This document shows, in pieces, positions 1,365-42,351 of a stretch of DNA of 42,351 bases. Position 1 is the stretch's first letter. Every line of letters starts with the position of its first letter. The notes beneath the pieces are model-generated. The model was not told the origin of the DNA. It searched no databases and was given only the letters and a program-made list of their open reading frames with translations. The translations under genes were made by a program, and so were the position numbers. Source of the DNA: Escherichia phage vB_EcoM-ep3. Where the stretch lies: sequence record NC_025430.1; one strand, written 5' to 3'.

Positions 1365-2354
1365 TTACTGTGCGCCGGTGCCCATCACCTGGCTGTTTAA
1401 ATCATCAACGTCCTGCGCATCGCCGTTTGCGTTGGCGCGCTGTTCGTCATATGCGCGGGCGGCTTGCAACAATGATTGTTTGAATTCATCGCCCAGCTTT
1501 TTGCGAATTGCTGGTGGGGTTTTGTCCCAGCATTCCTGCGTGTACTGCTCACCCTGTTCGGTAACGCCGCGCAGCTTGTTGCGGTAGGCTTCCACCTTCG
1601 GATCTAACTTGTTGCCACCCTGAACCCACTGACGCAGCGCCAAACCGTCCTGTGCGCTGATGTAGCCAGTTTCACGTCCTAAGATGCCGCGCAATTCTTC
1701 CGGGCACTTCATGACCTGCTGCGCGCTGCCAGAATCCCACATCATCAGGCTGGCGGTCATTTCAAACATCACGTTCTTTTCCGTCACCGGCATGATGCCT
1801 TGCGGTTCATATTCCGTTTTACCGTTGACCTTCACCAGTTTCACTTTTTCACGTGCGCGGATGCAGCAGATGATGTGCATGTTGGATTGCAGCAACGCGT
1901 TCATGAATCGCTTGTGTTCAGCCTTCGCACGGTTCCACTGTGGCTTCATCGGGTTGGCCAGGGTGGCGATTTCTTCGCAGCCGCCTGTTCCTTCCCATTC
2001 GTGCGAAATGCTATCAATCACCAGCACTTCAACGCCTGCCTGTTCAAATTCGCGGATGGCGTCAATGTATCGCTGCGGGCTGAAAGGCGGTTCTAAATCG
2101 CCAATCCAAAACGCGTCCGGGCGTTCTTTCAGTCCAAGTGATTCCTGGATTTTTTCATAAGTGTCATCACTGGCATACAGTGAGCCACGGCGGTTTTCAG
2201 TATCGAGAAAGCCAACCTTTGTGCCGTCACCGTTAGCCAGGCCATATGCCAGCATAAGTGCTGACAGGGTTTTGCCGCTGCCGCTGATACCTGCCAGGCC
2301 GATTACCAGGCGCGCGCCTTCACGTTCTGCCTTACGAATATTAATTACTGCCAT
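1365..2354 (-). CDS. RecA-like AAA ATPase, Sak4-type recombination/annealing protein
   Basis: 329 aa. Walker A GISGSGKT and Walker B-like VLVIDSISHEW. It lies between a nuclease and SSB, as in phage recombination modules. Confidence 0.7.
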   Translation of the reverse strand: MAVINIRKAEREGARLVIGLAGISGSGKTLSALMLAYGLANGDGTKVGFLDTENRRGSLYASDDTYEKIQESLGLKERPDAFWIGDLEPPFSPQRYIDAIREFEQAGVEVLVIDSISHEWEGTGGCEEIATLANPMKPQWNRAKAEHKRFMNALLQSNMHIICCIRAREKVKLVKVNGKTEYEPQGIMPVTEKNVMFEMTASLMMWDSGSAQQVMKCPEELRGILGRETGYISAQDGLALRQWVQGGNKLDPKVEAYRNKLRGVTEQGEQYTQECWDKTPPAIRKKLGDEFKQSLLQAARAYDEQRANANGDAQDVDDLNSQVMGTGAQ

Positions 2355-3524: not shown

Positions 3525-3575
3525 TATGTTACCTCGCAATTATTATTTAACATGAATTCGGATTAACTGCGGTGA

Positions 3576-3605: not shown

Positions 3606-3703
3606 CTTATTTGTAACTAACATTGTTTAGATCAGCGTCACGCTCGCTAATCAACAAACCTTAGCTGTACATCAGCTATGCGTTTTTTGCACATCGCGGC
3701 TTG

Positions 3704-3715: not shown

Positions 3716-3730
3716 GAACATTACTACTGG

Positions 3731-3760
3731 TTGCAACGTCGCCATGTAGTAACATACAAT
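3731..3760 (+). promoter_or_regulatory. Candidate rightward early promoter
   Basis: TTGCAA (3731-3736), 18-nt spacer, TACAAT (3755-3760). It lies 38 nt upstream of the helicase ATG. Confidence 0.55.
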
Positions 3761-3797
3761 TGCGAATACTTTAAATGATGGCGAATGAACGATAATT

Positions 3798-5227: not shown

Positions 5228-5272
5228 ATAGGTATAACCGATTGGCGATATTTACCAAAGGAAATGTATAGT
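5228..5272 (+). promoter_or_regulatory. Conserved upstream element, copy A (ATAGGTATAACCGATT ... ATTTAC ... AAATGTATAG)
   Basis: 15/16 identity over the first 16 nt to 10480-10495, with further shared blocks downstream. It is intergenic, just 5' of gene 5321-5989. Confidence 0.4.
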
Positions 5273-5320
5273 TATTTCACCGGCACACAGGTGCCCAACA
5301 ACAAAAGAGGAAACACCCAA

Positions 5321-5989
5321 ATGGCACGTTTAACCGCTGCAATCCGTGATGGCATCATTGCCAACGCAATCAAAACCAAAGACTTTGCAGGCCGTGACAT
5401 GGCTATTGTTCAGAAGCGCGCTGATTTTGCTGAACGTCTGCGCAAGTATGCGCTTGCACAATATGGCCTTACTGATGCGCGCCTTATTGAAATTAAAAAG
5501 CAGATTGAAGAACTGCAAAACGAAGTTAAGCACGAAGGAGCAAGGTTCGTTCGAATTACTTTTGACTCAACTAACCGTGCTTGGGATGTGAACCTGGCAG
5601 GACAGGCGCGCAGGCTTTATCTTGATGGTACTTGTTCAGGGGAAAGCGTAAAACCGCTTTATAGTGATTCACGCGTAGAATACAGCGACGATAAAATTAC
5701 TCCACATTTCCATGAATCTGATTTCACAGTGCGCGATCCTAAATGGCGCGAAGAACTGGACGCCATTGACCTGGAAGCGGCGCAACTGCGTGAAGAATAC
5801 AACACGCTTAAATCAACACTGGCAGCGACAATTTCAGGATTCACGACGGTGGAAAAACTTCTGGAAGCCTGGCCAGACGCGAAAGAACTGATTCCAGAAA
5901 CAACGCCGATTGCTAAACATCCAGGAACAGGCATTGCGCTGTCGGTAGCTGAACTTAACGCGCTGTGTGGAATTCCTACCGGAAAATAA
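5321..5989 (+). CDS. Hypothetical protein, possibly Nmad5-like (nucleotide-modification-associated)
   Basis: The start is moved to ATG 5321 (MARLTAAIRDGIIANAI...), behind an AGAGGA RBS. The N-terminal pattern M.LT..IRD.I recalls Nmad5-family proteins; this is from memory and unverified. Confidence 0.45.
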   Translation: MARLTAAIRDGIIANAIKTKDFAGRDMAIVQKRADFAERLRKYALAQYGLTDARLIEIKKQIEELQNEVKHEGARFVRITFDSTNRAWDVNLAGQARRLYLDGTCSGESVKPLYSDSRVEYSDDKITPHFHESDFTVRDPKWREELDAIDLEAAQLREEYNTLKSTLAATISGFTTVEKLLEAWPDAKELIPETTPIAKHPGTGIALSVAELNALCGIPTGK

Positions 5990-7648: not shown

Positions 7649-7677
7649 TTTACTTTCGGAAATGCGCCCTGTACTAT
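7649..7677 (+). promoter_or_regulatory. Candidate sigma70-type promoter
   Basis: TTTACT (7649-7654), 17-nt spacer, TACTAT (7672-7677). It lies 30 nt upstream of the HTH gene start. Confidence 0.5.
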
Positions 7678-7706
7678 GGGCGCATTGTTATTACGAGGCT
7701 ATTACT

Positions 7707-7895
7707 ATGGACGAAAGGACCGAACGACTTCACAACATTATGGCTGAACATGGCTTAACCTGCCGCGACGTTGGCCGTTTACTTGGGCGCACTGAACAAA
7801 CGGTGCTTATCTGGCGCTGTAAGGGCGGGAAAGTCATTCCGACCCACCAGCTTGAATTGCTTGAACTGAAACTGAACGCGCAGGCGGAAAAATGA
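7707..7895 (+). CDS. Small Cro/Xre-like helix-turn-helix regulator
   Basis: The start is moved to ATG 7707, 8 nt after a GAGG RBS. The HTH segment is LTCRDVGRLLGRTEQTVLIWRCKG. Confidence 0.55.
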   Translation: MDERTERLHNIMAEHGLTCRDVGRLLGRTEQTVLIWRCKGGKVIPTHQLELLELKLNAQAEK

Positions 7896-10567: not shown

Positions 10568-11545
10568 ATGGGTAGCATTGTGAATAAATACGAATTGCAT
10601 TTAGGTGATTGCCTGGAAGTTATGAAGTCTATTCCAGCCGGTAGCGTTGATTTGGTTCTGTGTGATCCGCCGTATGGCACCGCTGGCGGAATGGGAAAGG
10701 GTGAAGAACGCTATTCACGAATTGCGAACGCTGAATGGGATAACGCTATTTCTCCGCAGGCCATTTTTGAAGAATGCAACCGCGTTTTGCGAACTAACGG
10801 CGCTCTTATTCTGTTCAGCCAGGAACCTTACACCAGCAAGTTAATCACAGCGGCGCATGGAAATCTGCCTTTCAGTTATCGACTAATGTGGCTGAAAGAC
10901 CATTTCTCTAACTCGCTGTTGGTAAATAAAGCGCCTGTTTCATACTTTGAAGATTTAGTGGTGTTCTTCAAGAAATATGACACGCTGGCACAGCATCCGC
11001 TAAGGGATTATGCCAAAAAAATCATGGAATACATTGGCAGAAATATAAAGCAGATAAACACTGATTTAGGTCACAGGCGCGCGGAACACTTTTTTTATGT
11101 TGAATCAACGCAGTTCGGGCTGTGTACTGAAAAGACATACAACCAGATTATTGCGCACTATGGGCTTAGTGTGTGTGACTGGCTTATGACTTATGCTGAA
11201 ATGTTAGAAATTGACCGCAGGTTTGCCCGCAGGTTTAACCTGGCGGATGGTGCAAAATACAAATCTAACGTTCTTCAGTACAAAAAGGATTATACCGGCC
11301 TTCACCCAACACAGAAGCCGGTAGCACTGCTGGCTGACATCATCAGGACATATTCAAACCCTGGCGAAACGGTTCTAGATTTCACTATGGGGAGCGGGTC
11401 AACAGGAGTCGCCTGCATCAATGAAGGCCGTAACTTCATAGGAATTGAACTTGATGAAACCTATTTCCAGACAGCGCAGGGGCGCATAATGGAAGCAGCA
11501 GCCGCAAACGATAACCAGGCAAGTAGCAATTCTGTTGTAGCATAA
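10568..11545 (+). CDS. DNA methyltransferase (N6_N4 family, beta class; DPPY motif suggests N6-adenine)
   Basis: 325 aa. Motif IV LCDPPYGT lies near the N-terminus and motif I DFTMGSGSTGVAC near the C-terminus. The region is visibly more A+T-rich than its neighbours. Confidence 0.85.
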   Translation: MGSIVNKYELHLGDCLEVMKSIPAGSVDLVLCDPPYGTAGGMGKGEERYSRIANAEWDNAISPQAIFEECNRVLRTNGALILFSQEPYTSKLITAAHGNLPFSYRLMWLKDHFSNSLLVNKAPVSYFEDLVVFFKKYDTLAQHPLRDYAKKIMEYIGRNIKQINTDLGHRRAEHFFYVESTQFGLCTEKTYNQIIAHYGLSVCDWLMTYAEMLEIDRRFARRFNLADGAKYKSNVLQYKKDYTGLHPTQKPVALLADIIRTYSNPGETVLDFTMGSGSTGVACINEGRNFIGIELDETYFQTAQGRIMEAAAANDNQASSNSVVA

Positions 11546-13507: not shown

Positions 13508-13942
13508 ATGGAATTACCGCGCACTGTGCAGGAAATAGCTGACGTTATTGGCCGTGAACGTGCGCTATATCTTATCGGACAACTACCAAAATTGTGGGTG
13601 CCATCGCAGCAGTACCACAAAGTAATTTTGTATGTGCCAAAGCGGATTCGGCCCAATGACCCCCTGGTGAAAATTCTTGGATGGAGTGACGCCAGCAAGA
13701 TGGTGCAGCACTTCGGTGGTGAAATGCTTCACCCGGCTAATTGCGAATACATTTACCGCCGTTTCATCCACAGCAGCATCAAGCGGATGCACAGCGAAGG
13801 AATGGACGCAAAAGCCATTGCGGAACTGCTGGACGTTTCAGAACGCACCGTGAAGCGGCACTGCACTGACAAACCCCACAAAGACACATCACCTGCAAAT
13901 GACAACACTCCCGAACGACTACTAACCGCTATGGGGCAATGA
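13508..13942 (+). CDS. Mor/C-family-like transcriptional activator (C-terminal HTH)
   Basis: 144 aa. HFGGEMLHPANCEYIYRRFIHSSIKRMHSEGMDAKAIAELLDVSERTVKRH parallels the Mu Mor core (LGGGQVYIP...RD..I...F.G.N..EL....GV....VY). It sits at the early/late boundary. Confidence 0.55.
   Translation: MELPRTVQEIADVIGRERALYLIGQLPKLWVPSQQYHKVILYVPKRIRPNDPLVKILGWSDASKMVQHFGGEMLHPANCEYIYRRFIHSSIKRMHSEGMDAKAIAELLDVSERTVKRHCTDKPHKDTSPANDNTPERLLTAMGQ
13868..13884 (+). promoter_or_regulatory. Late-motif copy 1 (15/17: GACAAACCCCACAAAGA)
   Basis: Inside the 3' end of the Mor-like gene. AACACT follows 19 nt downstream (13904-13909). It ends 62 nt before the holin ATG. Confidence 0.5.
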
Positions 13943-14553: not shown

Positions 14554-15033
14554 ATGAAAATTTCATCCAATGGCCTGGCTGTTCTTAAATACTTCGAGAA
14601 TTGCCACCTTAAGGCATATCCAGATCCTGCCACCGGTGGTGCGCCGTGGACGATTGGATGGGGCCACACAGGGCCAGAAGTTAAACGCGGGCTAGTGTGG
14701 ACACAAAAGCAGGCTGATGATGCACTGGTGGCCGACCTGGCACGATTTGAACGCGCAGTTAGTGCCGCCGTTCGTGTTCCGCTGAACCAGGGCCAGTTTG
14801 ATGCGCTGGTTTCGTTCACTTACAACTTGGGTGAAGGCAATCTGAAATCCAGCACGCTGCTGAAAATGGTCAACGCTGGCAACTTTGCCGGTGCTGCTGA
14901 ACAGTTCAAACGCTGGAACAAGGCGAACGGCAAGACGATGCGCGGCCTGACCCGACGCCGTGCCGCTGAACAATGCTTGTTCCTGGGCATGGGTGGTGCG
15001 TCAGCTATTGAACGCGGTGTGGCGGCAGCATGA
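14554..15033 (+). CDS. Endolysin, GH24 (T4/lambda-type) lysozyme
   Basis: The start is moved to ATG 14554, 5 nt after a GAGGA RBS. YFENCHLKAYPD...WTIGWGHT...QFDALVSFTYNLG is the phage lysozyme signature. Confidence 0.9.
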   Translation: MKISSNGLAVLKYFENCHLKAYPDPATGGAPWTIGWGHTGPEVKRGLVWTQKQADDALVADLARFERAVSAAVRVPLNQGQFDALVSFTYNLGEGNLKSSTLLKMVNAGNFAGAAEQFKRWNKANGKTMRGLTRRRAAEQCLFLGMGGASAIERGVAAA

Positions 15034-16240: not shown

Positions 16241-18248
16241 CCCGTTTGCCAACATTGAAGGCATTGACCAGGCTATCCGGCGCGCACAACAACAATTGTT
16301 GCCGCCGCCAGACATGAAGCCGTCAGAGTGGGCGCAGGCTAATATCCGCATTCCGTCTGGCAACGCCGTGCCAGGACCGCTGCGCCTGGATAACGCGCCA
16401 TACCAGCGCGAACCAATGGACATGCTGGTTGACCCTGATTGCTACCGTGTAACGCTGATGTGGGGCGCGCAGGTGGGCAAAACCATGCTGGCACTGTGCG
16501 TGCAGGCGTACAGCGTAGCCGCTGAACCGCGCAGCCAGATGATGATGCAGCCAAGCCAGGATGACTTGCGCACCTGGCTGGAAACGAAATTCAACCCTCT
16601 GGCGGAAGAATGCGCGCCGGTAAACAACGCCATTGCCAAACCGCGTGGCCGCGACGGGGTGAACAACCAGAAAATGAAATCATACCCTGGCGGGTTCTTG
16701 ATGTTCGCCTGGTCCGGTTCGCCAAAGACCATGCGCGGGCGTTCAGCGCCGCTGATTGTATGTGACGAGGTAGACGGATATGAACGAACCAGCGAAGGGC
16801 ACCCGGTTGGCCTGCTGTGGCAGCGTTCTGCCACCTTCGGTGACCAGCGGTTTTTGCTGGAAATCAGCACCCCTACCCTTAAAGGTGAATCGTACATCGA
16901 AAAAGCGTATGAAATGGGCGACCAGCGGCACTTCTTTGTTTGCTGCCCGCACTGTGACGATCACGTTACGCTTGAATGGGAAAACGTCAAATGGGATGGC
17001 CAGCGGGAAACTGACGCGGAAACGCTGGCGGCCATCGAAGAACAGAAGCCGGAAACAGCGCACCTGTATTGCCCATCGTGCGGCGCGCAGTGGAATGACG
17101 GCGAACGGATAGCGGCTATCCGTCAGGCCGAAGAAAAGGGCGCAGGCTGGAAGGCGTCCAGGCCGTTTGAAGGGCACGCAAGCTACCACCTGAACGAACT
17201 ATACAGCACATTCCGCAAAGTACCGGCCATCGTGCGTGACTACCTGGACAAGCTGAAAACGGACGACCTGCAAACCTTCACCAACGTCAGCCTGGCGCGC
17301 ACCTGGGAAGAAGAAGGCGACAAGGTTGACCCGGATTCACTGATGGCACGCCGCGAGGAATACGCCGCGCAGGTGCCTGCTGGTGGGCTGTATATCACCG
17401 CAGGCATAGACATGCAGGTTGACCGCCTGGAATGTGAGGTGGTGGCCTGGGGCGTTGGTGAAGAATCCTGGTCATTGGGTTACCACGTCCTGTGGGGCGA
17501 CCCTCTGACGCCAGATCCGTGGGATGCGCTTGATGACCTGCTGGCGGAAACCTACCAGCACGAAACCGGCGCAGTGCTGCCGATCATGGCCGCCTGCCTG
17601 GATACCGGCGGCACCAGCGGTTACACGCAGGCCGCCTATGACTACGCCAGAGGGCGCACAGGCCGCCGCCTGTTTGCCATCAAAGGAGTGGGCGGTTGGG
17701 GTCGTCCTATCGTGGAGAAGCCGCAGCGCAAGCAATCCGGGAAGGATGCCCGCAAAGTGGATTTATTCCTGGTGGGCACCGATGAAGCCAAGCTGATAAC
17801 TGCACGCCGTTTAAACAAGACGGCACCGGGGCCAGGTTATTGCCACTTCCCTGCTGACCGCGATGAAGAATGGTTTAAGCAAATCACCGCTGAAAAGCTG
17901 ACCATGCGTTACGTGAAGGGCCAGCCAATCCGCGAGTGGAAGAAACCCGACCGGGCGCGCAACGAAGCACTGGACTGCCGCAACTATGCGCTGGCCGCGC
18001 TTAAAATCATGCAGCCGTCATTCCGCCGCCTGGCTGAAAAGTTTGGCGTAGCGAACGACAACGCGCCACCGGAACGCCGCAAGCGGCTTCCGAACGTCAA
18101 ACCCATCGTGAAACCGGTGGAAGTGCCGCAACCGGCCAATGACAAACCCCAAGAAGAAGAAAAACAGCAAGTCACAGAGACTAAGCCCATTAAACGTTCC
18201 GCCAGGGCATCCAAACGCCGTGGCGGTGGATGGGTTAGCCGCTGGTGA
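16200..18248 (+). CDS. Terminase large subunit (lambda gpA family)
   Basis: 682 aa with a gpA-like N-terminus (PSEWAQANIRIPSGNAVPGPLRLDNAPYQREPMD). An alternative in-frame GTG start at 16224 lies behind AAGGGGG. Confidence 0.9.
   Translation: MAMTKGATVTAKNNPFANIEGIDQAIRRAQQQLLPPPDMKPSEWAQANIRIPSGNAVPGPLRLDNAPYQREPMDMLVDPDCYRVTLMWGAQVGKTMLALCVQAYSVAAEPRSQMMMQPSQDDLRTWLETKFNPLAEECAPVNNAIAKPRGRDGVNNQKMKSYPGGFLMFAWSGSPKTMRGRSAPLIVCDEVDGYERTSEGHPVGLLWQRSATFGDQRFLLEISTPTLKGESYIEKAYEMGDQRHFFVCCPHCDDHVTLEWENVKWDGQRETDAETLAAIEEQKPETAHLYCPSCGAQWNDGERIAAIRQAEEKGAGWKASRPFEGHASYHLNELYSTFRKVPAIVRDYLDKLKTDDLQTFTNVSLARTWEEEGDKVDPDSLMARREEYAAQVPAGGLYITAGIDMQVDRLECEVVAWGVGEESWSLGYHVLWGDPLTPDPWDALDDLLAETYQHETGAVLPIMAACLDTGGTSGYTQAAYDYARGRTGRRLFAIKGVGGWGRPIVEKPQRKQSGKDARKVDLFLVGTDEAKLITARRLNKTAPGPGYCHFPADRDEEWFKQITAEKLTMRYVKGQPIREWKKPDRARNEALDCRNYALAALKIMQPSFRRLAEKFGVANDNAPPERRKRLPNVKPIVKPVEVPQPANDKPQEEEKQQVTETKPIKRSARASKRRGGGWVSRW
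18141..18157 (+). promoter_or_regulatory. Late-motif copy 2 (exact GACAAACCCCAAGAAGA)
   Basis: Inside the terL 3' end, where it encodes DKPQEE. GAGACT follows 19 nt downstream (18177-18182). It ends 97 nt before the next gene start at 18255. Confidence 0.5.
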
Positions 18249-20350: not shown

Positions 20351-22376
20351 CATCATTGGGGCCGAATTTACCCGCAAATCAGACAGCAAAACGCTGCCTG
20401 ATTTCAACAAAGGCGGGCTGGTGCGCACTATGGAAGTGCGCAAGTTTGACACCGAAAAACGCACCGTAGAACTGGCGTTTTCCTCCGAAATCGAGGTTGA
20501 ACGCTGGTACGGTATCGAAATTCTGGACCATTCGCCGGAAAGCGTGCGCCTGGACCGTCTGCGTGACGGTGGGGCGCTGCTGGTTGACCACGATTGGACT
20601 GACCAGGTGGGCGTTGTTGAATCCGTCAGCATTGACGCTGACCGCCGGGGGCGGGCTGTGGTGCGCTTTGGCCGAAGTGCACGCGCTGACGAGATTTTCC
20701 AGGACATCGTTGACGGCATTCGCAAGCATGTTTCCGTTGGCTACCGCGTGTTAGCGGCCAAGCTACAGGAAACGCGTGACGAGTGGCAGGATGTCTACCG
20801 CATCACTGAATGGGAACCGTTCGAAATTTCAATTGTGAGCGTTCCCGCTGACACCAGCGTTGGCATTGGGCGTGCGTTTGACAAACCCCAAGAAGAACAA
20901 CGCGGCATCAAATCCGATACTGCGGGCACCGTAGAGGTTCCAGCACCAAAAAAATCATTTGAGGATTCACGAATGTTAGAAAAAATTCTGCGCGACGCTG
21001 CCGGTAACCTGGTGCGCGCGATGGTAGACGAGAAAGGCAACATCACGCAGGTTCTGGAAATGCTGGAACGTGCTGGCGATGATGCGCGCAACGCTGAACA
21101 GCGTGGCCGTGAAGCGGAAAAGGCGCGCGTGCGTTCCATCACTGAAATGGGCGAGAAGTACAACGCACGTGACCTGGCTTTGAAAGCTATTGGCGAAGGC
21201 ACCACCGCCGAAGATTTCCAGCGTTCCTTGCTGGACCACCTGAACAAGCCGAAAGACCCGGCACAACCGGCTGATGACACCCGTTCCGGCAGCAAGCCGC
21301 TGTCAGAAATGCCGTCCAGCGTGATTGGTATGTCTGACAAAGACATCCGCCGCTATAGCATTTTCAACGTGGTTCGCGCGCTGGCTAACCCGAACGATGC
21401 AGCCGCACAGCGTGCCGCAGCGTTTGAAATCGAATGCAGCCACGCAGCGCAACAGCAGTATGGCCGCAGTGCAAAAGGCATCCTGATCCCTGACGATGTT
21501 CTGCGCGCATTCAACGCTGGTGGCGCACCGAACACCCCGACAGGTGCACAGACCGGTTCCAACCTGGTTGGCACTGACTTTATGGCCAGTTCGTTCATCG
21601 ACCTGCTGCGCCCGCGTACCACCATCATGCGCCTGGCGCGTACTATGGGCGGCCTGGTTGGCAACGTTGAAATTCCGAAACAGACTGGCGGCGCTACTGC
21701 CTACTGGATTGGTGAAGGTGATGACGCAACCGAAACCACGCCGACCATCGGCCAGCTTAGTTTGTCACCGAAAACCGTTGCGGCTTACACCGACATTACC
21801 CGCCGCCTGCTGATGCAATCCACCCCGGATGCGGAAGCTATCGTGCGCGGTGACCTGGTGGCAGCTATCGCGCAGGCGATTGATTACGCTGGCTACTACG
21901 GCACCGGCACCAGCAACCAGCCGCTGGGTCTGGCGAACTACACCGGCATTAATGCGGTAGACTTCGCAGCAGCCAACCCGACTTATGCGGAACTGGTGCA
22001 GATGGAAACCGAAATCGCGGCTGACAACGCTGACGTGAACAACATGGCATATGTGCTGAACGCGCGTGGCCGTGGTGCAGCGAAAACCACGCCGAAGTTT
22101 GCCAGTGGTTCTTCCGTGGCTGACGCTGGCGTGATTTGGGAACCGGGCAACACCCTGAACGGTTACCGCGCCGAAGTTACCAACCAGGTTCAGGATGGTG
22201 ACGTGTTCTTTGGCAACTTCGCTGACTTGGTTGTTGGTATGTGGGGCGGCCTGGACATGACGGTTGACCCGTATAGCCTGAGCAAATCCGGTGGCCTGCG
22301 CATCGTGGTATTCCAGGACGTGGATTTTGCGGTGCGCCGCGTTGAATCCTTCTGCCTGGGCCGCAACGCAGCATAA
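20328..22376 (+). CDS. Prohead serine protease (HK97 S78 type) fused in frame to scaffold-like linker and HK97-fold major capsid protein
   Basis: 682 aa. The N-terminal ~185 aa is protease-like (RTVELAFSSEIEVERWYG...HDWTDQVGVVES...ISIVSVPAD). A coiled-coil region follows, then a C-terminal MCP pattern (GSNLVGTDFMASSFIDLLRPRTTIMRLA...AYWIGEGD). Confidence 0.8.
   Translation: MQKNLLNSIIGAEFTRKSDSKTLPDFNKGGLVRTMEVRKFDTEKRTVELAFSSEIEVERWYGIEILDHSPESVRLDRLRDGGALLVDHDWTDQVGVVESVSIDADRRGRAVVRFGRSARADEIFQDIVDGIRKHVSVGYRVLAAKLQETRDEWQDVYRITEWEPFEISIVSVPADTSVGIGRAFDKPQEEQRGIKSDTAGTVEVPAPKKSFEDSRMLEKILRDAAGNLVRAMVDEKGNITQVLEMLERAGDDARNAEQRGREAEKARVRSITEMGEKYNARDLALKAIGEGTTAEDFQRSLLDHLNKPKDPAQPADDTRSGSKPLSEMPSSVIGMSDKDIRRYSIFNVVRALANPNDAAAQRAAAFEIECSHAAQQQYGRSAKGILIPDDVLRAFNAGGAPNTPTGAQTGSNLVGTDFMASSFIDLLRPRTTIMRLARTMGGLVGNVEIPKQTGGATAYWIGEGDDATETTPTIGQLSLSPKTVAAYTDITRRLLMQSTPDAEAIVRGDLVAAIAQAIDYAGYYGTGTSNQPLGLANYTGINAVDFAAANPTYAELVQMETEIAADNADVNNMAYVLNARGRGAAKTTPKFASGSSVADAGVIWEPGNTLNGYRAEVTNQVQDGDVFFGNFADLVVGMWGGLDMTVDPYSLSKSGGLRIVVFQDVDFAVRRVESFCLGRNAA
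20880..20896 (+). promoter_or_regulatory. Late-motif copy 3 (exact GACAAACCCCAAGAAGA)
   Basis: At the protease/linker junction, where it encodes DKPQEE. GATACT follows 19 nt downstream (20916-20921). It ends 76 nt before the internal ATG at 20973. Confidence 0.5.
20973..22376 (+). CDS. Possible nested in-frame product: scaffold(delta)-major capsid protein from an internal start
   Basis: ATG 20973 lies 7 nt after a GAGGA RBS inside the fusion ORF. The product would begin MLEKILRDAAGNLVRAMVDEKGN..., a coiled-coil delta-domain-like N-terminus. Confidence 0.45.
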   Translation: MLEKILRDAAGNLVRAMVDEKGNITQVLEMLERAGDDARNAEQRGREAEKARVRSITEMGEKYNARDLALKAIGEGTTAEDFQRSLLDHLNKPKDPAQPADDTRSGSKPLSEMPSSVIGMSDKDIRRYSIFNVVRALANPNDAAAQRAAAFEIECSHAAQQQYGRSAKGILIPDDVLRAFNAGGAPNTPTGAQTGSNLVGTDFMASSFIDLLRPRTTIMRLARTMGGLVGNVEIPKQTGGATAYWIGEGDDATETTPTIGQLSLSPKTVAAYTDITRRLLMQSTPDAEAIVRGDLVAAIAQAIDYAGYYGTGTSNQPLGLANYTGINAVDFAAANPTYAELVQMETEIAADNADVNNMAYVLNARGRGAAKTTPKFASGSSVADAGVIWEPGNTLNGYRAEVTNQVQDGDVFFGNFADLVVGMWGGLDMTVDPYSLSKSGGLRIVVFQDVDFAVRRVESFCLGRNAA

Positions 22377-25178: not shown

Positions 25179-25181
25179 CCT

Positions 25182-25198
25182 GACAAACCCCAAGAAGA
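25182..25198 (+). promoter_or_regulatory. Late-motif copy 4 (exact GACAAACCCCAAGAAGA)
   Basis: Intergenic, 3 nt after the gpV stop. CATCAT follows 20 nt downstream (25219-25224). It ends 33 nt before the gpW ATG. Confidence 0.5.
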
Positions 25199-25211
25199 TA
25201 AACCATCACCC

Positions 25212-31401: not shown

Positions 31402-31404
31402 ACG

Positions 31405-31421
31405 GACAAACCCCAAGAAGA
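31405..31421 (+). promoter_or_regulatory. Late-motif copy 5 (exact GACAAACCCCAAGAAGA)
   Basis: Intergenic, 3 nt after the terminator T-run. GACCAT follows 19 nt downstream (31441-31446). It ends 72 nt before the sheath ATG. Confidence 0.55.
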
Positions 31422-31493
31422 AGCCACGCACGGTTCCTGCGACCATCACACTGCGAATTTTCACTGTGTGCACAGTTAATAGGAAACCGAATA

Positions 31494-33460: not shown

Positions 33461-33487
33461 AACAATCATTGTTTGAGGCGATAAGAA

Positions 33488-37005: not shown

Positions 37006-37412
37006 CCAGTTTCACGATTTTAACCGGGCAGACCAACATCATGATGATGTTGGGCGGCTTCCAGTTCTGCATCCTTACTGCGGCATATCAGGAACTGAAC
37101 CGCCACAGCGAATATAAGTGGCCATCGCAGCACCGCTTTGGCCTGCGCCCATCATCGCAATTCGTGGGCATCGGAGAGGAAACCATCACCCTGGCTGGCA
37201 TCATTTACCCTGAATACCGTGGCGGGTTTCAGCAGGTGGAGCAAATGCGCAGCATGGCTGGCCGTGGTCAGCCGCTGTTGCTGGTTGATGGCCTGGGCAA
37301 ACTGTGGGGCCGTTGGGTGATTGAAGCTATTGACGAAAAACAATCATTGTTTGCGGCGTTCGGTGCGCCGCGCAAACAGGAATTCAATTTGCAACTGCGG
37401 CGGTTCAACTGA
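37002..37412 (+). CDS. Tail protein (P2 gpU-like)
   Basis: The MMMLGGFQFCILTAAYQELNRHSEYKWPSQHRFG pattern is gpU-like. It has an ATGA overlap with the tape measure stop. An alternative start is ATG 37041. Confidence 0.8.
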   Translation: MTSFTILTGQTNIMMMLGGFQFCILTAAYQELNRHSEYKWPSQHRFGLRPSSQFVGIGEETITLAGIIYPEYRGGFQQVEQMRSMAGRGQPLLLVDGLGKLWGRWVIEAIDEKQSLFAAFGAPRKQEFNLQLRRFN

Positions 37413-37621: not shown

Positions 37622-38718
37622 CTGGAATTGCGCCAGCGTTTCGCGTGCTGGCCAACGGCGATGACATCACCGCCAAAATCAATGAACGACTGATAAGCCT
37701 TAGTCTGTCTGACGGCGTGGGGCTGGAATCTGACACGCTGGAAATCAGCCTGGCGGATGATGAACCGGCCAACCCAATCCAGATGCCGGAAACAGGCGCA
37801 GAACTGGAACTGTTCCTGGGCTATGACAACTGGACCCAACGCATGGGCCTGTTTATCTGTGACGAAGTGGAACTGGCTGGCTGGCCAGGCACCATGACCA
37901 TCAGGGCGCGCGCTGCCACCTATGACAAGTCAAAGGGCGGCAAAACCGACCTGCAAACGCAGAAATCACGAAGCTGGACCAAAGGCACGAAGTTTGGCGA
38001 CATGGTGAAGAAGATAGCCAGCGAACACGGCATGGAATCCGCCGTGTCAGAAAGCATGGCCAAAATCACCCTGCCCCACACCGACCAGGCCGATGAATCT
38101 GACCTGAACCTGTTGCTGCGCCTCGCCAAGAAATATGACGGCGTAGTGAAGCCAGCAGGCGGCAAAATCACGGTCACGAAGAAAGGCGAAGGCAAGACGG
38201 CCAGCGGCGAAGAACTGCCAACCATCACGCTGACGGCGCAGGATTGCACCGCATTCAGGCTGACCAGCCAGAAGCGCGAAAACGCAGGCACGGTGGTGGC
38301 TTACTACCAGGTGACGAAGAAGGCCGCGCGCAACGAAGTGAAGGTGGGCGAAGGTGAGCCGGTCAAACGGATTGGCAAATACTACCCGACGCAGGCAATG
38401 GCCCTGGACGCTGCCAAAGCCGAACTGGCCAAGCGCCAGCGCAACCAGGTGACCGTTGCCGTTACGCTGCCGGGTGACCCATCCATTGCCGCAGAATGCA
38501 AACTGGTGCTGGTTGGGTTCCGTGATGGCATTGATGGCGAATGGCTGATTACCCGCGCAGATCACCGGCTGGATGACAACGGCTATTCTTGCGACGTGGA
38601 AGCAACGAAGCCGAACAGCGAAGAAGAACCGAAGGTGGAAGTTATCGAGCGCAAGAAGCCGCAAGAAAGCGACCCGCCTGACGATGATGGCCCTGGGCAC
38701 GTCATCGAAGAAAAATAA
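37612..38718 (+). CDS. Tail/late control protein D (P2 gpD-like)
   Basis: 368 aa. APAFRVLANGDDITAKINERLISLSLSDGVGLESDTLEISLADD is the GPD signature. Confidence 0.85.
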   Translation: MGLTGIAPAFRVLANGDDITAKINERLISLSLSDGVGLESDTLEISLADDEPANPIQMPETGAELELFLGYDNWTQRMGLFICDEVELAGWPGTMTIRARAATYDKSKGGKTDLQTQKSRSWTKGTKFGDMVKKIASEHGMESAVSESMAKITLPHTDQADESDLNLLLRLAKKYDGVVKPAGGKITVTKKGEGKTASGEELPTITLTAQDCTAFRLTSQKRENAGTVVAYYQVTKKAARNEVKVGEGEPVKRIGKYYPTQAMALDAAKAELAKRQRNQVTVAVTLPGDPSIAAECKLVLVGFRDGIDGEWLITRADHRLDDNGYSCDVEATKPNSEEEPKVEVIERKKPQESDPPDDDGPGHVIEEK

Positions 38719-38730
38719 CAACAAACATTG

Positions 38731-38760
38731 TTGTAATCATTCTACATCATCGTATATCAT
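38731..38760 (+). promoter_or_regulatory. Candidate promoter of the post-tail accessory operon
   Basis: TTGTAA (38731-38736), 16-nt spacer, TATATC (38753-38758). It is preceded by hairpin ACAACAA-ACA-TTGTTGT (38718-38734) and followed by a 5'-UTR hairpin (38769-38789). Confidence 0.45.
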
Positions 38761-38810
38761 TACCTTAACCGGGCGGATAACCTGCCCGGATAAATAACGA
38801 GGTAATGCCC

Positions 38811-39284
38811 ATGTGTTTATTACTTTCCCACTCTATCGCCGGAACCGGCGGACCGTACCCACAACCTAAAAATAACGGCTGGATTGATTGGCATGGTGGT
38901 GAATGTCCGGTGGATAGTGACGAAATTGTTGAGGTCAAATTCCGTGAACCTTGCCCGATTCATTTCAGTAATGACAGAGCAGGAGATTTTACATGGCTTC
39001 ATTATGGACATACCGCCGACATCATTGCTTACAGACTGGTGAACAAGCATGAATTAGAAACCGCTTGCATTGATGTGAAGCGCGATGCTGTCAAATCCAA
39101 TGATGCGCAGTTAGAAGCCGACCTGAATGACTGCATTGGCCAGCCGCAAAGCGATGACGATGCGCGTGATGAAATACTTTACGAACTGGCTAACTTTGCG
39201 GCCACTACAAAAACCAGTCTTGACATTGGTGTTGCCACAGAAATTGCAATTTGGCTTTCTGGCAAAGGTTATCGTAAACAATGA
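38811..39284 (+). CDS. Hypothetical accessory protein
   Basis: The start is placed at ATG 38811, 8 nt after GAGG; ATG 38805 is only 2 nt from the RBS. It contains GWIDWHGGECPVDSDEIVEVKFR...WLHYGHTADIIAYRLV and an acidic C-terminal half. Confidence 0.55.
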   Translation: MCLLLSHSIAGTGGPYPQPKNNGWIDWHGGECPVDSDEIVEVKFREPCPIHFSNDRAGDFTWLHYGHTADIIAYRLVNKHELETACIDVKRDAVKSNDAQLEADLNDCIGQPQSDDDARDEILYELANFAATTKTSLDIGVATEIAIWLSGKGYRKQ

Positions 39285-39364
39285 TTGTTAAAAAACGCGA
39301 TCTGCCCATCATTATTGTATGGGCTTCATTTCTAATCACTTCATTTGTATTGGGATTTATGTAA
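39281..39364 (+). CDS. 27-aa membrane peptide (below the ORF-track cutoff)
   Basis: MIVKKRDLPIIIVWASFLITSFVLGFM. Its ATG overlaps the upstream stop (ATGA) and its TAA abuts the ParB-like ATG at 39365. Confidence 0.45.
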   Translation: MIVKKRDLPIIIVWASFLITSFVLGFM

Positions 39365-40240
39365 ATGGCTACTATCGGGCAACTGTATAAATCAAAACAA
39401 ACCGCAGCAACGCCGCGCAAGGTGTTTTGGGTGCCGCTGGCTGAACTGTATGTGGAAGATGGCTACAACATCCGCGACGTGGACCAGGCGCACGTTGAAG
39501 AATTCCGCGATGCGTACCTGGCCGGTGAATATGTGCCGCCGCTGACCGTGGAAGTGACGCAGCAGGGCATCAAGGTGATTGATGGCCACCACCGCTTTGC
39601 CGGTGCAAAGATGGCCGCAGAAACCGGCCTGGAACTGCGCCTGGAAGTGAACGACATCACCGGCACCAGTGAGGCTGACAAAATCGCGCTGATGGTCACC
39701 AGCAGCCAGGGCAAGCCGCTGGAACCGCTGGAACGCGCCAAAGCCTATTCGCGCCTGAAAGCGCAGGGCTGGACCAATGACGAGATAGCCAAGAAGGTGA
39801 AGCGCAGCCCGTCAGACGTGGCCAACATGCTGGCCCTGGCTGAATGCCCGGAACCCATCAAAGACATGGTGCGCGGTGGCCAGATGTCCTACGTGACCGC
39901 CACCGAACTGACCCGCCAGCACGGCACCGAAGCCGAAGCCGTGGCCGCACAGGCGCTGGAAGAAGCCAAAGCCGCTGGCAAGGATAAAGTAACAAAGAAA
40001 TTCACCGAACCGAAGGCACCAAAAGCGCCGAAGGCCAAGCCGGAAGCAATCCAGCCACCGTTCGGCAAAGACAAGCTGACGCGCCTGGCTGACCTGGCCG
40101 TGCAAATCGAACTGGTCCACAGCGATGAACGCCTGGAAGATGCCGAGCCTGACGAATCCATGACCCTGCGCGCACCTGCTGGCGTGGTGCGTGAATTCAT
40201 GGCGCTGGTGGCTGACTACGTGGGCGGGGTGCCGGAATGA
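39365..40240 (+). CDS. ParB N-terminal (ParB/sulfiredoxin-like nuclease) domain protein
   Basis: 291 aa. VPLAELYVEDGYNIRD...VIDGHHRFAGAKMA is the ParB-N motif. A central HTH-like region (TNDEIAKKVKRSPSDVANMLAL) is followed by a Lys/Pro/Ala-rich linker. Confidence 0.75.
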   Translation: MATIGQLYKSKQTAATPRKVFWVPLAELYVEDGYNIRDVDQAHVEEFRDAYLAGEYVPPLTVEVTQQGIKVIDGHHRFAGAKMAAETGLELRLEVNDITGTSEADKIALMVTSSQGKPLEPLERAKAYSRLKAQGWTNDEIAKKVKRSPSDVANMLALAECPEPIKDMVRGGQMSYVTATELTRQHGTEAEAVAAQALEEAKAAGKDKVTKKFTEPKAPKAPKAKPEAIQPPFGKDKLTRLADLAVQIELVHSDERLEDAEPDESMTLRAPAGVVREFMALVADYVGGVPE

Positions 40241-40548
40241 AAGGCGAACTGAAAGCCGGTGGCCTGGCGCTGGTGATTGGTAACAACCCGCACGCTGGGA
40301 AGTGTGTAACGCTGGTTCGTTTTGTAACCCCTGGCCAGATGTTTAACATTCCTACAGGCGGAGAGACTTTCTTATCTCTGAAAGCCGATGCCTCATGGTT
40401 GGTGACCGGAAATGTTTATCCAAAAGGATGTGAACATGATCAAGGCTGGTCGCTTTTTGCGCCAAGATGCCTGCTGCCAATCGACGGCGACGACCACCAG
40501 GAACAGGAACAACTAACCAAAGACAAACCAGCCGAACTGACGGCGTAA
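40237..40548 (+). CDS. Hypothetical accessory protein
   Basis: 103 aa with an ATGA overlap to the ParB-like gene. Confidence 0.55.
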   Translation: MKGELKAGGLALVIGNNPHAGKCVTLVRFVTPGQMFNIPTGGETFLSLKADASWLVTGNVYPKGCEHDQGWSLFAPRCLLPIDGDDHQEQEQLTKDKPAELTA

Positions 40549-40557
40549 GGGGCATAT

Positions 40558-40779
40558 GTGAAACTGCGAAAAGTGGATGTGAAAGGAACCTATAACATCA
40601 GGTTCATCATTTCGATGACGGCAAGTGATGGCCGTGAGGCGTGCTGGTATCTTGAAACAGTAGAACGTTCTCTGAATAAAGCAGATAAGGGGAACTGGCG
40701 TAATGCAATAGCAGCCGATCTGCTACGAGGACGCCAGGCGCTGCGTGACATTATAAACAACCTAGCCGGTGAGGCGTAA
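40558..40779 (+). CDS. Hypothetical accessory protein
   Basis: GTG start 5 nt after AAGGGG; 73 aa. Confidence 0.5.
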   Translation: MKLRKVDVKGTYNIRFIISMTASDGREACWYLETVERSLNKADKGNWRNAIAADLLRGRQALRDIINNLAGEA

Positions 40780-40788
40780 GGGGATAGT

Positions 40789-40968
40789 GTGGAAGAAATA
40801 GAATACGTTGTAACACTGAAAATGGAAGATGGCGCGATGTATGAGGCTTTACGCGCCACCGCAACCAAAGATGGTGATCTATCTGTGCAGGCACCAGACC
40901 AGGAAGCCCTACTGGCAGTCCTGGATAAGATGCAGGAAATGATAGATTATATCCGTGAAAACATGTAA
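40789..40968 (+). CDS. Hypothetical accessory protein (59 aa, below the ORF-track cutoff)
   Basis: GTG start 5 nt after AAGGGG, in a junction nearly identical to the previous one. The product is VEEIEYVVTLKMEDGAMYEALRATATKDGDLSVQAPDQEALLAVLDKMQEMIDYIRENM. Confidence 0.5.
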   Translation: MEEIEYVVTLKMEDGAMYEALRATATKDGDLSVQAPDQEALLAVLDKMQEMIDYIRENM

Positions 40969-40974
40969 CACACA

Positions 40975-41000
40975 GCCCGCCTCTTCGGCGGGCTTTTTGT
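40975..41000 (+). terminator. Rho-independent terminator ending the rightward late/accessory genes
   Basis: GCCCGCC-TCTTC-GGCGGGC followed by TTTTTGTT. Confidence 0.8.
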
Positions 41001-41031
41001 TGGTGGCGACCCAGGAAGGAATCGAACCTGT
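41001..41031 (-). other. tRNA 3'-end fragment (T-loop, acceptor strand, CCA); not an intact tRNA
   Basis: Minus strand reads CAGGTTCGATTCCTTCCTGGGTCGCCACCA. The T-loop GGTTCGATTCC and the terminal CCA are present, but no matching 5' acceptor strand, D arm or anticodon arm lies upstream. Confidence 0.6.
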
Positions 41032-41563
41032 AACATACAGCTTATACTACCTGCCGCAGACGCGCGAGGCGATGAATAAATGGGAAATATTGTTGCGAAA
41101 TGCACTTGCGTGATATAGGATTAAATTGTCAGTTGTAGAGATTCACGCTGTCGAGAGATACACGATGACCGCCGTGAAAGGACGGCACACAACAGGTAAG
41201 AGCATTGAACCCGTAGACCTCGCGGATTTGGTGAAAGGTGCCGCGCATTGCTCTTTCCGTTGTGGTGAATGCGCAGGCTGATGCGCGACCAATGTATAAA
41301 CAGCGCTCATGGCAAGCAGTAACCAATCTGCGCCTCAAGACAGCGTCACTGGTAGTGCGGGCGCTCTAACCAGTAAGCCGGAGTTCAGCACCGGCCACCA
41401 CAACACGCGCCGTGATGCGCTTTTGCGAACACTTCCAACCACCAGGGTGTTACCTCGCAACGTGAAAGCGCATCGCAGTGCGACATTCGCACAGACTGGA
41501 ACTTACCAGACTAGTGATTCCAATAAGGCAGGTGATCTGTATCTCGCATCACAGCGTCACGTG

Positions 41564-41595
41564 ACACAAAACCCCGCTTAGGCGGGGTTTTTCTT
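41564..41595. terminator. Bidirectional rho-independent terminator (ends sprT-like gene on the - strand)
   Basis: A-rich run, then ACCCCGC-TTAG-GCGGGGT, then TTTTTC. The hairpin is flanked by an A-tract and a T-tract. Confidence 0.75.
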
Positions 41596-41598
41596 TGG

Positions 41599-42270
41599 TC
41601 ATTCGTCATCGCCTTCCGGAGTCATCGCGCCATGTTCCGGGCAGTGAGGCGGCCCGACCTCCAACCATTTTTGCGTTACCCGAACCGTGTAGCCGCATTC
41701 CTGGCATTCGCATTTTTTCAGCCTGGTGGTTTGCTTAGGCTTCGCCGTGGACGCACCGCCGACCGGTGCCACTTCGATTTCCTCCCCTTCATCATCGTCA
41801 CCGCCTTCATCCAGGCCGATGCGCAGGCGTGGCACTTTTATGGATATGCCACGGTCAAACGTCAGCTTGGCGTGCGGCATGGGGCCAAGTTCGTCCAGGA
41901 ACGGTTTGACGTACTCTTTGAATTTCTCGCCAGGCGTGGTGGCGGTCATCGGTCCATTCAGGCCAACAGCCTTGCACACAGTGGCAAACGCGCCCTTGTG
42001 GCCACAGTCAAAACCAACGGTGGCGTGCGTCAGTTCGTGCCACAGGTGGTTTGCGACCAGGTACGGTTCCACCTGGTCTGGCATGATGAATATTTCAAAG
42101 GTGTTGTCTGCACTGCACTTGCTGTGCCAGCACTGTGCCGCCGTACTGGACCGCGCGCCGCTGCTGCAAAAGCCAACTGACACCCGGAATTTTGGCATTT
42201 CATAGCCGAATTCTTTAAAACGCGGCGCAAACTTCGCCGCCAAAGCATTTAACCAACCTTCACGGTCCAT
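41599..42270 (-). CDS. SprT-like zinc metalloprotease-domain protein with C-terminal zinc ribbon
   Basis: 223 aa. HExxH motif (LWHELTHATV), an acidic linker (GGDDDEGEE) and C-terminal CECQECGYTVRV...HCPEHG. The RBS is GAGAGGA. Confidence 0.7.
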   Translation of the reverse strand: MDREGWLNALAAKFAPRFKEFGYEMPKFRVSVGFCSSGARSSTAAQCWHSKCSADNTFEIFIMPDQVEPYLVANHLWHELTHATVGFDCGHKGAFATVCKAVGLNGPMTATTPGEKFKEYVKPFLDELGPMPHAKLTFDRGISIKVPRLRIGLDEGGDDDEGEEIEVAPVGGASTAKPKQTTRLKKCECQECGYTVRVTQKWLEVGPPHCPEHGAMTPEGDDE

Positions 42271-42305
42271 ATATATTTCCTCTCAATGCGTTTAAACGTG
42301 TTTAG

Positions 42306-42311
42306 ATTATA
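42306..42311 (-). promoter_or_regulatory. Consensus -10 element (TATAAT) for the sprT-like gene
   Basis: Minus strand reads TTGTATAAT about 35 nt upstream of the start codon. There is no good -35 element. Confidence 0.4.
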
Positions 42312-42320
42312 CAAAGGCAA

Positions 42321-42345
42321 AGAAAAACCCGCCATAACGGCGGGG
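42321..42345 (-). terminator. Rho-independent terminator, near-duplicate of the one at 1-27
   Basis: Minus strand reads CCCGCC-GTTAT-GGCGGG followed by TTTTTCTTT. The 17-mer CCCGCCATAACGGCGGG (42328-42344) is identical to 11-27. Confidence 0.7.
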
Positions 42346-42351
42346 TGGTTA

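Follow-up and report, generated by a model that had tools for sequence, protein, structure and literature searches.

A ParB-family gene locus and a dispersed palindrome in Escherichia phage vB_EcoM-ep3 and its Jilinvirus relatives

In this study, we performed a computational analysis of a six-gene locus of Escherichia phage vB_EcoM-ep3 (sequence record NC_025430.1), which follows the gene gpD and encodes a ParB-like protein together with five small proteins, named here ORF1, pep27, ORF4, ORF5 and ORF6 (ORF, open reading frame). The whole stretch of DNA analysed, 42,351 nt and hereafter called the window, is essentially the complete genome of a Jilinvirus (Iiscvirinae) myophage in circularly permuted form. 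Sequence comparison tentatively suggests that the locus is a conserved and separately controlled Jilinvirus operon centred on a core ParB-family DNA-binding protein. In addition, we found a palindrome, AACAAT-N-ATTGTT, which is newly observed here, has 7 perfect and 3 one-mismatch copies in the window, and is a candidate binding site of the ParB-like protein.

Organisation and conservation of the locus

All six ORFs of an initial annotation of this DNA were found in the ORF list at the coordinates it gave (Table 1), and the two genes it described as missing from a 60-codon ORF track are pep27 and ORF6. ORF1 has an alternative in-frame ATG at 38805, which sits only 2 nt past the Shine-Dalgarno sequence, so 38811 is the better start. 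The cistrons are as tightly coupled as had been claimed: stop and start codons overlap as ATGA at ORF1/pep27 and at parB/ORF4, and a TAA is directly followed by ATG at pep27/parB. The two near-identical junctions with GTG starts, quoted in that annotation as GGCGTAAGGGGCATATGTG and GGCGTAAGGGGATAGTGTG, are both present, and each is built from a stop codon, an AAGGGG Shine-Dalgarno sequence, 4-5 nt and the GTG.

The promoter-like site, the 5' hairpin and the terminator that had been proposed as the limits of the operon likewise lie where they were placed. The promoter-like site and the hairpin stem are conserved, though by count promoter-like sites are no better than chance (2 found versus 2.9 expected in shuffles). 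The 92-bp gpD-ORF1 spacer is nearly invariant across eight genomes, and in Enterobacter phage Arya and Klebsiella phage KA2-1 the -35 and -10 (TATCAT) hexamers, their spacing, the hairpin stem and the ribosome-binding site are kept despite diverged sequence between the hexamers. The outer helix of the conserved RNA structure covers the ORF1 Shine-Dalgarno sequence. Its inner hairpin (38769-38789, 8 bp; 56-nt fold with dG -19.9 kcal/mol and z = -3.5) has a variable loop and a conserved stem, in which one base pair is switched from G-C to C-G in KA2-1 by a compensatory change; a G.U pair present in every sequence indicates conservation at the RNA level on the + strand. An Rfam search of 38000-42351 returned nothing above the gathering score. 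The block looks like a transcription unit, with a conserved regulatory region at its 5' side, coupled cistrons and a strong terminator at its 3' side.

No terminator was found between gpD and the locus, so late transcripts could read into it. The 5' arm of the outer helix would overlap the -10 element, upstream of the inferred local start near 38766, and thus only read-through transcripts from the tail operon could hide the ORF1 ribosome-binding site. ORF1 translation would be expected mainly from the local-promoter transcript, which would open 2-3 nt ahead of the GC-rich hairpin. A 5' hairpin close to the transcript start protects mRNA 5' ends from decay in E. coli.

Table 1. Genes, regulatory features and palindrome copies of the window, with their conservation in related phages.
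Feature	Position	Strand	Description	Relatives
gpD				present in all; 97-99% identity in genus
Palindrome AACAAACATTGTT	38720..38732		2 nt past gpD stop; overlaps -35 by 2 nt	kept in all, including Arya and KA2-1
Sigma-70-type promoter-like site	38731..38760	+	TTGTAA-18-TATCAT; 9/12 consensus matches; -35, -10 and spacing kept in 8 genomes	
Conserved RNA structure (RNAalifold)	38758..38808	+	outer 8-bp helix CAUUACCU (38758-38765)/AGGUAAUG (38801-38808) plus inner hairpin	
ORF1	38811..39284	+	157 aa; acidic, isoelectric point (pI) 4.7	all, same order; identity 54-82%
Palindrome AACAATGATTGTT	39277..39289		spans ORF1 stop/pep27 start; 76 nt upstream of parB	
pep27	39281..39364	+	27 aa; basic N-terminus, hydrophobic stretch, grand average of hydropathy (GRAVY) 1.46	intact in 11/13 loci; identity 93-100% in close relatives, 56% in Arya
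ParB-like gene (parB)	39365..40240	+	291 aa	all, same order; 96.6-99.7% within genus
ORF4	40237..40548	+	103 aa; overlaps parB stop (ATGA)	all, same order; identity 38-95%
Junction 1 GCGTAAGGGGCATATGTG	40544..40560	+	ORF4/ORF5; GGCGTAAGGGGCATATGTG of the initial annotation	kept after ORF4 in all
ORF5	40558..40779	+	73 aa; basic, pI 9.7; GTG start	
Junction 2 GCGTAAGGGGATAGTGTG	40775..40791	+	ORF5/ORF6; GGCGTAAGGGGATAGTGTG of the initial annotation	
ORF6	40789..40968	+	59 aa; very acidic, pI 4.05; GTG start; last gene ahead of terminator	
Intrinsic terminator	40974..41000	+	8-bp stem 40974-40994, then T-run; strong, z = -3.8	
Decayed attachment module	41002..41113		~45 nt of tRNA-Arg 3' part (minus strand) fused to last ~20 integrase codons	from HeidiAbel alignment
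Palindrome AACAATCATTGTT	37339..37351		inside gpU	Arya ortholog 21337
Palindrome AACAATCATTGTT	33461..33473		between tail tube gene and next gene	Arya ortholog 18481, 1 mismatch
Palindrome AACAACAATTGTT	16288..16300		terminase genes	Arya ortholog 654
Palindrome AACAATGCTTGTT	14969..14981		near endolysin gene end	Arya ortholog 41241
Palindrome AACAATGATTGTT	1468..1480		early-left gene	Arya ortholog 28177
One-mismatch palindrome	3615..3627		10 bp upstream of -35 of early-left promoter	

The closest phages to the window, with 86-96% nucleotide identity across the aligning parts, are ECOO78, ECO1230-10, HeidiAbel (Bas97), Alux-21 and Salmonella phage PT1; Arya is a more distant match, and KA2-1 too is more distant. 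The map of the window follows the gene order of Arya and HeidiAbel. A syntenic locus was found in all seven of these phages and in metagenome and isolate contigs, and the order gpD, ORF1, pep27 position, ParB-like gene, ORF4 was kept in every relative examined, KA2-1 included. The initial annotation had named a lack of synteny in relatives as a result that would refute its reading; synteny was clear throughout. Nothing similar to the region was present among 5,426 complete E. coli genomes or 72,556 plasmid records (PLSDB). The genome had been treated as P2-like; the locus does lie between gpD and an attachment module, but only the tail module is P2-type and the phage itself is a Jilinvirus.

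Conservation differs strongly among the genes. The locus consists of a core (the ParB-like gene), two fixed hypervariable positions (ORF1 and ORF4) and a cassette zone (ORF5 and ORF6) bounded by the repeated junction. In a large protein collection, the ParB-like protein within the genus formed about twenty clusters, all with at least 96% identity, and at 90% identity ORF1 formed 355 clusters and ORF4 73, mostly on contigs of 40-44 kb. The GC content at third codon positions (GC3) is 0.70 in parB, 0.64-0.68 in gpD, the tape measure and the terminase, and 0.32-0.51 in the five small genes. Because it is syntenic in all relatives, nearly identical within the genus (Table 1) and similar in GC3 to the structural genes, the ParB-like gene is, as judged from sequence, a compositionally native core gene and no moron. 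The earlier term "accessory operon" therefore fits the small genes, which resemble exchangeable cargo, but does not suit the conserved ParB-like gene or the fixed positions of ORF1 and ORF4.

The ParB-like alleles themselves vary in two Jilinvirus contigs of E. coli type (L017, 2748-3668; L019, 2636-3547), which carry an Arya/KA2-1-type allele of 303-306 aa instead of the 291-aa form, beside a short 159-aa ORF1 allele. This swap indicates that ParB alleles are also exchanged between lineages; the recognition helix is the same in both types.

A ParB-family protein without ParA

The ParB-like protein comprises a ParB/Srx-type N-domain, a helix-turn-helix (HTH) domain of the HTH_ParB family with the recognition helix RSPSDVANMLAL, a Lys/Pro/Ala-rich linker at about residues 200-232 and a C-terminal domain of about 55 aa. 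It matched PHROG 1033 ("ParB-like partition protein") with E 5.8e-85 and Pfam PF17762 (HTH_ParB) with E 3.8e-13 (49.9 bits against a cut-off of 22.6). The N-domain, already recognised in the initial annotation, was recovered by TIGR00180 (residues 44-171, E 4.7e-13, under the curated cut-off) and by alignment of residues 38-182 to Spo0J/ParB structures (E 1.5e-10 with the single sequence, 6e-13 with a profile), while Pfam PF02195 gave no match at E <= 0.1. Among solved structures, Thermus Spo0J, Bacillus Spo0J and Myxococcus ParB match best, followed by Noc and KorB. The cytidine triphosphate (CTP) motifs GERRxRA and ENLQR(xDL) are not kept: the aligned positions read DGHHRFAGA and VTSSQGKPL, and in the first of them only D73, G74, H76 and R77 are invariant across 41 family members.

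The absence of a ParA partner, claimed previously, was borne out. Pfam scans covered 18 ORFs of the window, namely all genes of the locus, gpD, the 41599-42270 ORF and ten others that are early or of unassigned function, and detected no ParA-type family; none is annotated in the fully listed Arya and HeidiAbel genomes, and the ParA-binding motif (L/F/I)G(K/R)G(L/F/I) is absent from the ParB-like protein. No nuclease domain was detected in Pfam and NCBIfam scans of the protein, and PADLOC gave noise only (E ~0.01-0.04). Judged by its domains and motifs, it does not look like a usual partition protein and is probably no nuclease either.

Members of PHROG 1033 were found in 302 phage records, and homologues are also frequent among enterobacterial prophages; ParA never accompanies them. 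At 45-57% identity they are widespread in enterobacterial prophages and virulent siphoviruses. In lambdoid phages the gene is part of an early operon: Erwinia 59 has it between cII and O, and OS31 and MD8 have it in the early-left operon. In KpV2811 the homologue lies directly upstream of a C5-methylase. Large conjugative plasmids often encode more distant relatives, with ~33% identity. A class of orphan ParBs carried by mobile elements has been described (PMC12704722); such proteins are common in phages, and no function is assigned to PHROG 1033 in the literature consulted for this report. The window protein is a direct member of this family, and it differs from its relatives in position, after the tail genes rather than in an early operon, and in its recognition helix and dispersed palindrome, which are specific to Iiscvirinae-type phages.

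We compared the protein with four better known systems. First, KorB of the IncP plasmid RK2 is also a ParB-family protein with an N-domain and an HTH, and its structures showed sequence similarity to the phage protein (E 2.9e-5 to 3.4e-4). The short palindrome of KorB is multi-copy on its replicon, with operators 4-10 bp upstream of some target promoters, directly 5' of the -35, and others distant, up to >1 kb away; KorB itself is a global regulator and an autoregulator (PMC11790492), a role that the phage protein might share. In contrast, KorB has ParA (IncC) and KorA as partners and depends on CTP-binding residues for sliding, no KorA-like co-repressor or IncC/ParA partner was matched by Pfam or NCBIfam among the locus proteins, and Spo0J/ParB structures match the phage protein more closely than KorB does. 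Second, Noc of Bacillus subtilis is an orphan ParB paralogue without ParA that has genome-dispersed palindromic sites, and the phage protein matched NCBIfam nucleoid_noc (E 1.7e-11, far under the cut-off) as well as Noc chains in the PDB. Noc differs in having intact CTP motifs, attaching to the membrane and functioning in cell division; the phage protein shows no sign of these properties.

Third, SopB of the prophage-plasmid N15 and ParB of P1 are phage-encoded ParB-type proteins, and N15 has four separate palindromic binding sites instead of one centromere array (PMC7205306). Both partition a plasmid prophage with a ParA/SopA ATPase, unlike the present locus, where no ATPase was found and which belongs to a phage not known to have a plasmid state, and the similarity of the phage protein runs to chromosomal-type ParB and not to SopB. 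Fourth, the ParB activators associated with 5mYOX enzymes are phage ParBs without ParA that have a non-segregation role and are apparently free of canonical CTP residues (PMC13229309).

In one alternative explanation, the ParB-like protein serves as cofactor of a DNA-modifying or DNA-cutting enzyme, comparable to ParB-dependent thymine dioxygenases, DndB and ParB-methyltransferase fusions. Some phage 5mYOX enzymes are activated by ParB proteins (PMC13229309), the KpV2811 homologue has its C5-methylase neighbour, and an Nmad5 protein and an N6/N4 DNA methylase are encoded elsewhere in the window. However, the 5mYOX-associated ParBs have no obvious DNA-binding domain and adjoin a dioxygenase, whereas the window protein has a clear, strong HTH_ParB and no enzyme gene stands in its locus; HeidiAbel and Arya lack the methylase, and Arya also Nmad5, yet the ParB-like gene is in all of them; and HeidiAbel is sensitive to restriction-modification (PMC11990801). 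We therefore regard a cofactor role as very improbable, and a partnership with the methylase or Nmad5 of the window was rejected because both genes are missing from relatives that keep ParB. The Nmad5 ORF (5264-5989, + strand; PF18757, E 2e-36) is present in HeidiAbel with 92% identity. The methylase ORF (10568-11545, + strand; PF01555, E 2e-30) is, by its absence from HeidiAbel and Arya, an accessory methylase of the window phage.

A dispersed palindrome and its candidate binder

The statement of the initial annotation that there is no obvious parS appears to need revising, as a strongly over-represented candidate palindrome exists. Its consensus is AACAAT-(G/C)-ATTGTT, and its flanks are not conserved. 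The pattern AACAA-N3-TTGTT had 10 matches with at most one mismatch in the window versus 2.49 +/- 1.39 in dinucleotide-preserving shuffles, and 0/100 shuffles reached 10. Since this pattern had first been chosen by eye from two similar palindromes, an unbiased scan of every 5-N(0-6)-5 palindrome was made, in which it came first in the window (7 versus 0.15 expected), in Arya (6 versus 0.03) and in HeidiAbel (7 versus 0.17); the top count for any palindrome across 40 simulated genomes was 4. Arya, which was not used for pattern definition, had 11 matches versus 1.97 expected, and seven window sites lie at orthologous Arya positions.

The two palindromes bracketing ORF1 were present in every relative and every metagenome locus examined. 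The centre of the first (38720..38732) lies ~41 bp upstream of the inferred transcription start. KA2-1 retains the second, at the pep27 start, though the pep27 ATG inside it is lost, which indicates that the palindrome is kept for its own sake. Another copy, with one mismatch, stands by the early-left promoter (3605-3576, minus strand; 11/12), the strongest sigma-70 promoter in the window.

Several features speak for a link between the palindrome and the ParB-like protein. It is short and odd-length (13 bp), of the size that HTH dimers recognise, and copies cluster just 5' of parB. The recognition helix RSPSDVAN(M/F)LAL is common to the window, Arya and KA2-1, though their ParBs are only 53-60% identical. 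ParB homologues carrying other helices come from genomes that lack the motif (Erwinia 59, KpV2811, OS31 and 79 IMG/VR loci). We consider that binding of AACAAT-N-ATTGTT by the ParB-like protein is possible, with the balance leaning slightly towards doubt. On this model a ParB dimer would bind the palindromes through its HTH, as KorB does on its OB operators and Noc on its NBS sites; a dimer on the 38720 palindrome would overlap the -35 of its own promoter and could bring about autoregulation, and the dispersed copies would allow genome-wide action, as regulator or silencer or as organiser or tether of the phage DNA. That the protein is such a KorB/Noc-like, site-specific binder, autoregulating and acting genome-wide, is put forward tentatively. 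If it does bind the palindromes, it would be a phage counterpart of the genome-wide ParB function of KorB and Noc without ParA. With HeidiAbel (Bas97, BASEL collection), an isolated E. coli phage is available that has both a highly conserved member of the family and a specific candidate binding site, and the palindrome turns the question of ParB-like function into a direct binding experiment.

A number of observations weigh against this model. The operon promoter matches the consensus at 9 of 12 positions, and the RNA structure has little covariation behind it (covariation term -0.24; a single compensatory pair, two changes that preserve wobble pairing and one break). Because GHHR stands in for GERR and TSSQG for ENLQR, the protein may lack the CTP chemistry of a clamp, and its likeness to KorB may then be limited to DNA binding. 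Most copies of the palindrome are intragenic, and their positional conservation could partly reflect protein-coding constraint. The match between helix and motif is confounded with the phage backbone: all motif genomes are of Iiscvirinae type, and no independent lineage with the same helix was found. Other conserved DNA-binding candidates exist, namely a 77-aa HTH protein (7662-7895) and a late activator (13508-13942). Dispersed palindromes of their own were sought near other ParB clades and not found; the recurrent sites there are single copies at fixed positions, which give no evidence for a general rule.

One such site, GTGACA-N4-TGTCAC (16 bp), occurs at a fixed position ~400 nt downstream of parB in 16 IMG/VR loci (within L026-L057) of the ADVDQHLQL clade. 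Its position would place it in the gene for the replication initiator, which comes after parB in Erwinia 59, and it is possibly an origin element.

In another alternative, a different regulator or a host factor owns the palindrome, the ParB-like protein binds elsewhere or non-specifically, and the two features are unrelated neighbours. In its favour, further HTH proteins are conserved across the same phages, and ParB homologues elsewhere have no dispersed palindrome of their own. AACAAT-N-ATTGTT itself was missing from Erwinia 59, KpV2811 and OS31 (0 copies), with at most 1 perfect copy in any of 79 non-Jilinvirus IMG/VR loci. Since these phages and loci have other recognition helices, mostly ADVDQHLQL or SDILQHLQL, this absence speaks neither for nor against the link. 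On the other hand, every relative has two copies directly in front of parB, a 13-bp palindrome of odd length right next to the -35 is the layout of some KorB operators (PMC11790492), and no copy is present in the HeidiAbel cI/early intergenic region, where repressor operators are expected. A different owner is accordingly judged somewhat unlikely. If the link to the ParB-like protein fails, the locus would be an ordinary early or accessory block, and the palindrome would still need an owner.

Two other roles of the palindrome were considered and found unlikely. A cI/Cro operator is disfavoured by the same HeidiAbel intergenic region and by the lack of cI in the window, and a late-promoter element by the fact that late gene blocks are marked by a different 22-nt repeat. 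This direct repeat (TGACAAACCCCAAGAAGAA...) occurs five times (13867-13888, 18140-18161, 20879-20900, 25181-25202 and 31404-31425); four copies lie ~30-95 nt upstream of late blocks (holin, head-tail joining, baseplate wedge and sheath) and the fifth inside the capsid gene. The copies are probably late-promoter or activator elements.

The small proteins and the decayed lysogeny module

ORF1, pep27, ORF4, ORF5 and ORF6 had no Pfam, NCBIfam or PADLOC match. ORF1 of the window is a short allele (157 aa versus ~200-280 aa elsewhere) with an N-terminal leader in common with the KA2-1 allele. Its predicted structure has a small beta domain and a conserved, well-predicted C-terminal three-helix part, and a fold search found no structural relative in the PDB. 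The middle domain alone occurs in Klebsiella siphoviruses, where a ParB homologue is carried at a non-adjacent position. The pep27 ORF is hydrophobic and keeps its 27 codons where intact; it is truncated in ECOO78 and absent in KA2-1, and from sequence it is probably a real small membrane peptide that is dispensable.

For ORF4, the structure prediction suggested with the initial annotation gave a confident model, a generic SH3-like beta-barrel with an acidic disordered tail; its ends are conserved and its centre variable. Together with the search for ORF1 relatives, this yielded no function. Assigning ORF4 by fold was rejected, because SH3-like barrels are generic and all BFVD matches are uncharacterised phage proteins. 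The "ATPase" label of ORF4 homologues in public records is not supported, with no P-loop or other ATPase fold seen. ORF4 also follows parB in KA2-1 and MQ-4, and stands alone in the nin region of P22-like phages.

ORF5 has 40% identity to an ORF of Alux-21 and a weaker match in HeidiAbel, and its 3' end with the junction recurs in Arya and KA2-1. ORF6 has no homologue in seven annotated relatives; an identical protein is encoded on 12 contigs, as the last called gene of the block in all six for which the neighbourhood is shown, and the four contigs that reach far enough have an integrase ~0.4-0.8 kb past it. Both genes are present or absent among phages that are otherwise 97-99% identical, and by this pattern of sequences ORF5 and ORF6 are swappable mini-cassettes. 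Most likely, ORF1, ORF4, ORF5 and ORF6 are fast-evolving or exchangeable passengers, for which a host interaction is favoured, judged on their diversity alone. The flanking genes offer a compact hypervariable candidate set for host-interaction screens.

Such diversity also fits a reading in which the whole locus, including the ParB-like protein, serves counter-defence or host takeover. Phages that otherwise differ little carry strongly divergent ORF1 and ORF4 alleles and may have or lack the ORF5 and ORF6 cassettes; the products of ORF1 and ORF6 are small, acidic proteins; and the locus has a sigma-70-type promoter and adjoins an attachment module. In addition, mobile-element ParB-fold proteins have been suggested to act in anti-defence (PMC12704722). 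Nevertheless, the ParB-like gene is core, conserved and compositionally native, the small proteins match no defence-related or other annotated family and their folds are uninformative, and HeidiAbel carries the locus yet is reported to be very sensitive to restriction-modification systems (PMC11990801). A literature search on an anti-defence role of phage ParB found nothing relevant. For the locus as a whole we hold this reading to be unlikely; counter-defence is plausible for the small genes and not for the conserved ParB.

Beyond the terminator, relatives carry a tRNA-Arg gene and an integrase. In the window, ARAGORN found no tRNA, and a 52-aa ORF (40955-41113) ends in the integrase C-terminus. 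The fusion of the tRNA-Arg and integrase remnants (Table 1) indicates that one deletion took attP and most of int. Between exonuclease VIII and the helicase (3540-3797), the window also lacks a cI-like gene. These losses agree with the description of the genus by the BASEL authors, in which some members have intact integrase and cI genes and others decayed ones, temperate behaviour was not seen and the lifestyle is called "enigmatic" (PMC11990801). The contig AATBGZ010000031 (L104, 1-13973), from the draft assembly of an E. coli isolate, has the size of a whole phage (42,429 bp), starts inside the tape-measure gene and has no host DNA at att. The literature cites this contig as an E. coli "prophage" of the group; it resembles a free genome, circular or permuted, and not an integrated prophage.

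This decay invites a further explanation, in which the ParB-like protein and the palindromes keep the phage as a non-integrated episome, in a carrier or pseudolysogenic state, by ParA-independent positioning or nucleoid tethering. The window and several relatives have lost integrase and cI by decay or deletion, the isolate assembly above holds the phage as a contig of its own, N15 uses its four separate SopB sites (PMC7205306), and the Lys/Pro/Ala-rich linker could bind DNA non-specifically. However, there is neither ParA nor a ParA-binding motif, lysogen-like growth is not reported for these phages (PMC11990801), the complete E. coli genomes and plasmid records searched lack the locus, and homologues occur in integrating lambdoid prophages, where partition is not needed. 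Episomal maintenance of this kind is quite unlikely. The more specific proposal that a ParA-less ParB and scattered palindromes, in the manner of KorB or Noc, keep the phage chromosome silent or tethered in a carrier state without integration is distinctly improbable; if true, it would explain the persistence of Jilinvirus without integrase and cI as well as the whole-genome contigs in isolate assemblies.

Further downstream, ~300 bp at 41110-41400, from the integrase remnant to a conserved stretch before the terminator at 41568-41591, have no alignment in HeidiAbel. The next gene, at 41599-42270 on the minus strand, is the first of the leftward early operon and 91-99% conserved in relatives; its 223-aa product matched phrog_6361 (E 2.3e-74), and the KA2-1 homologue is annotated as SprT-like.

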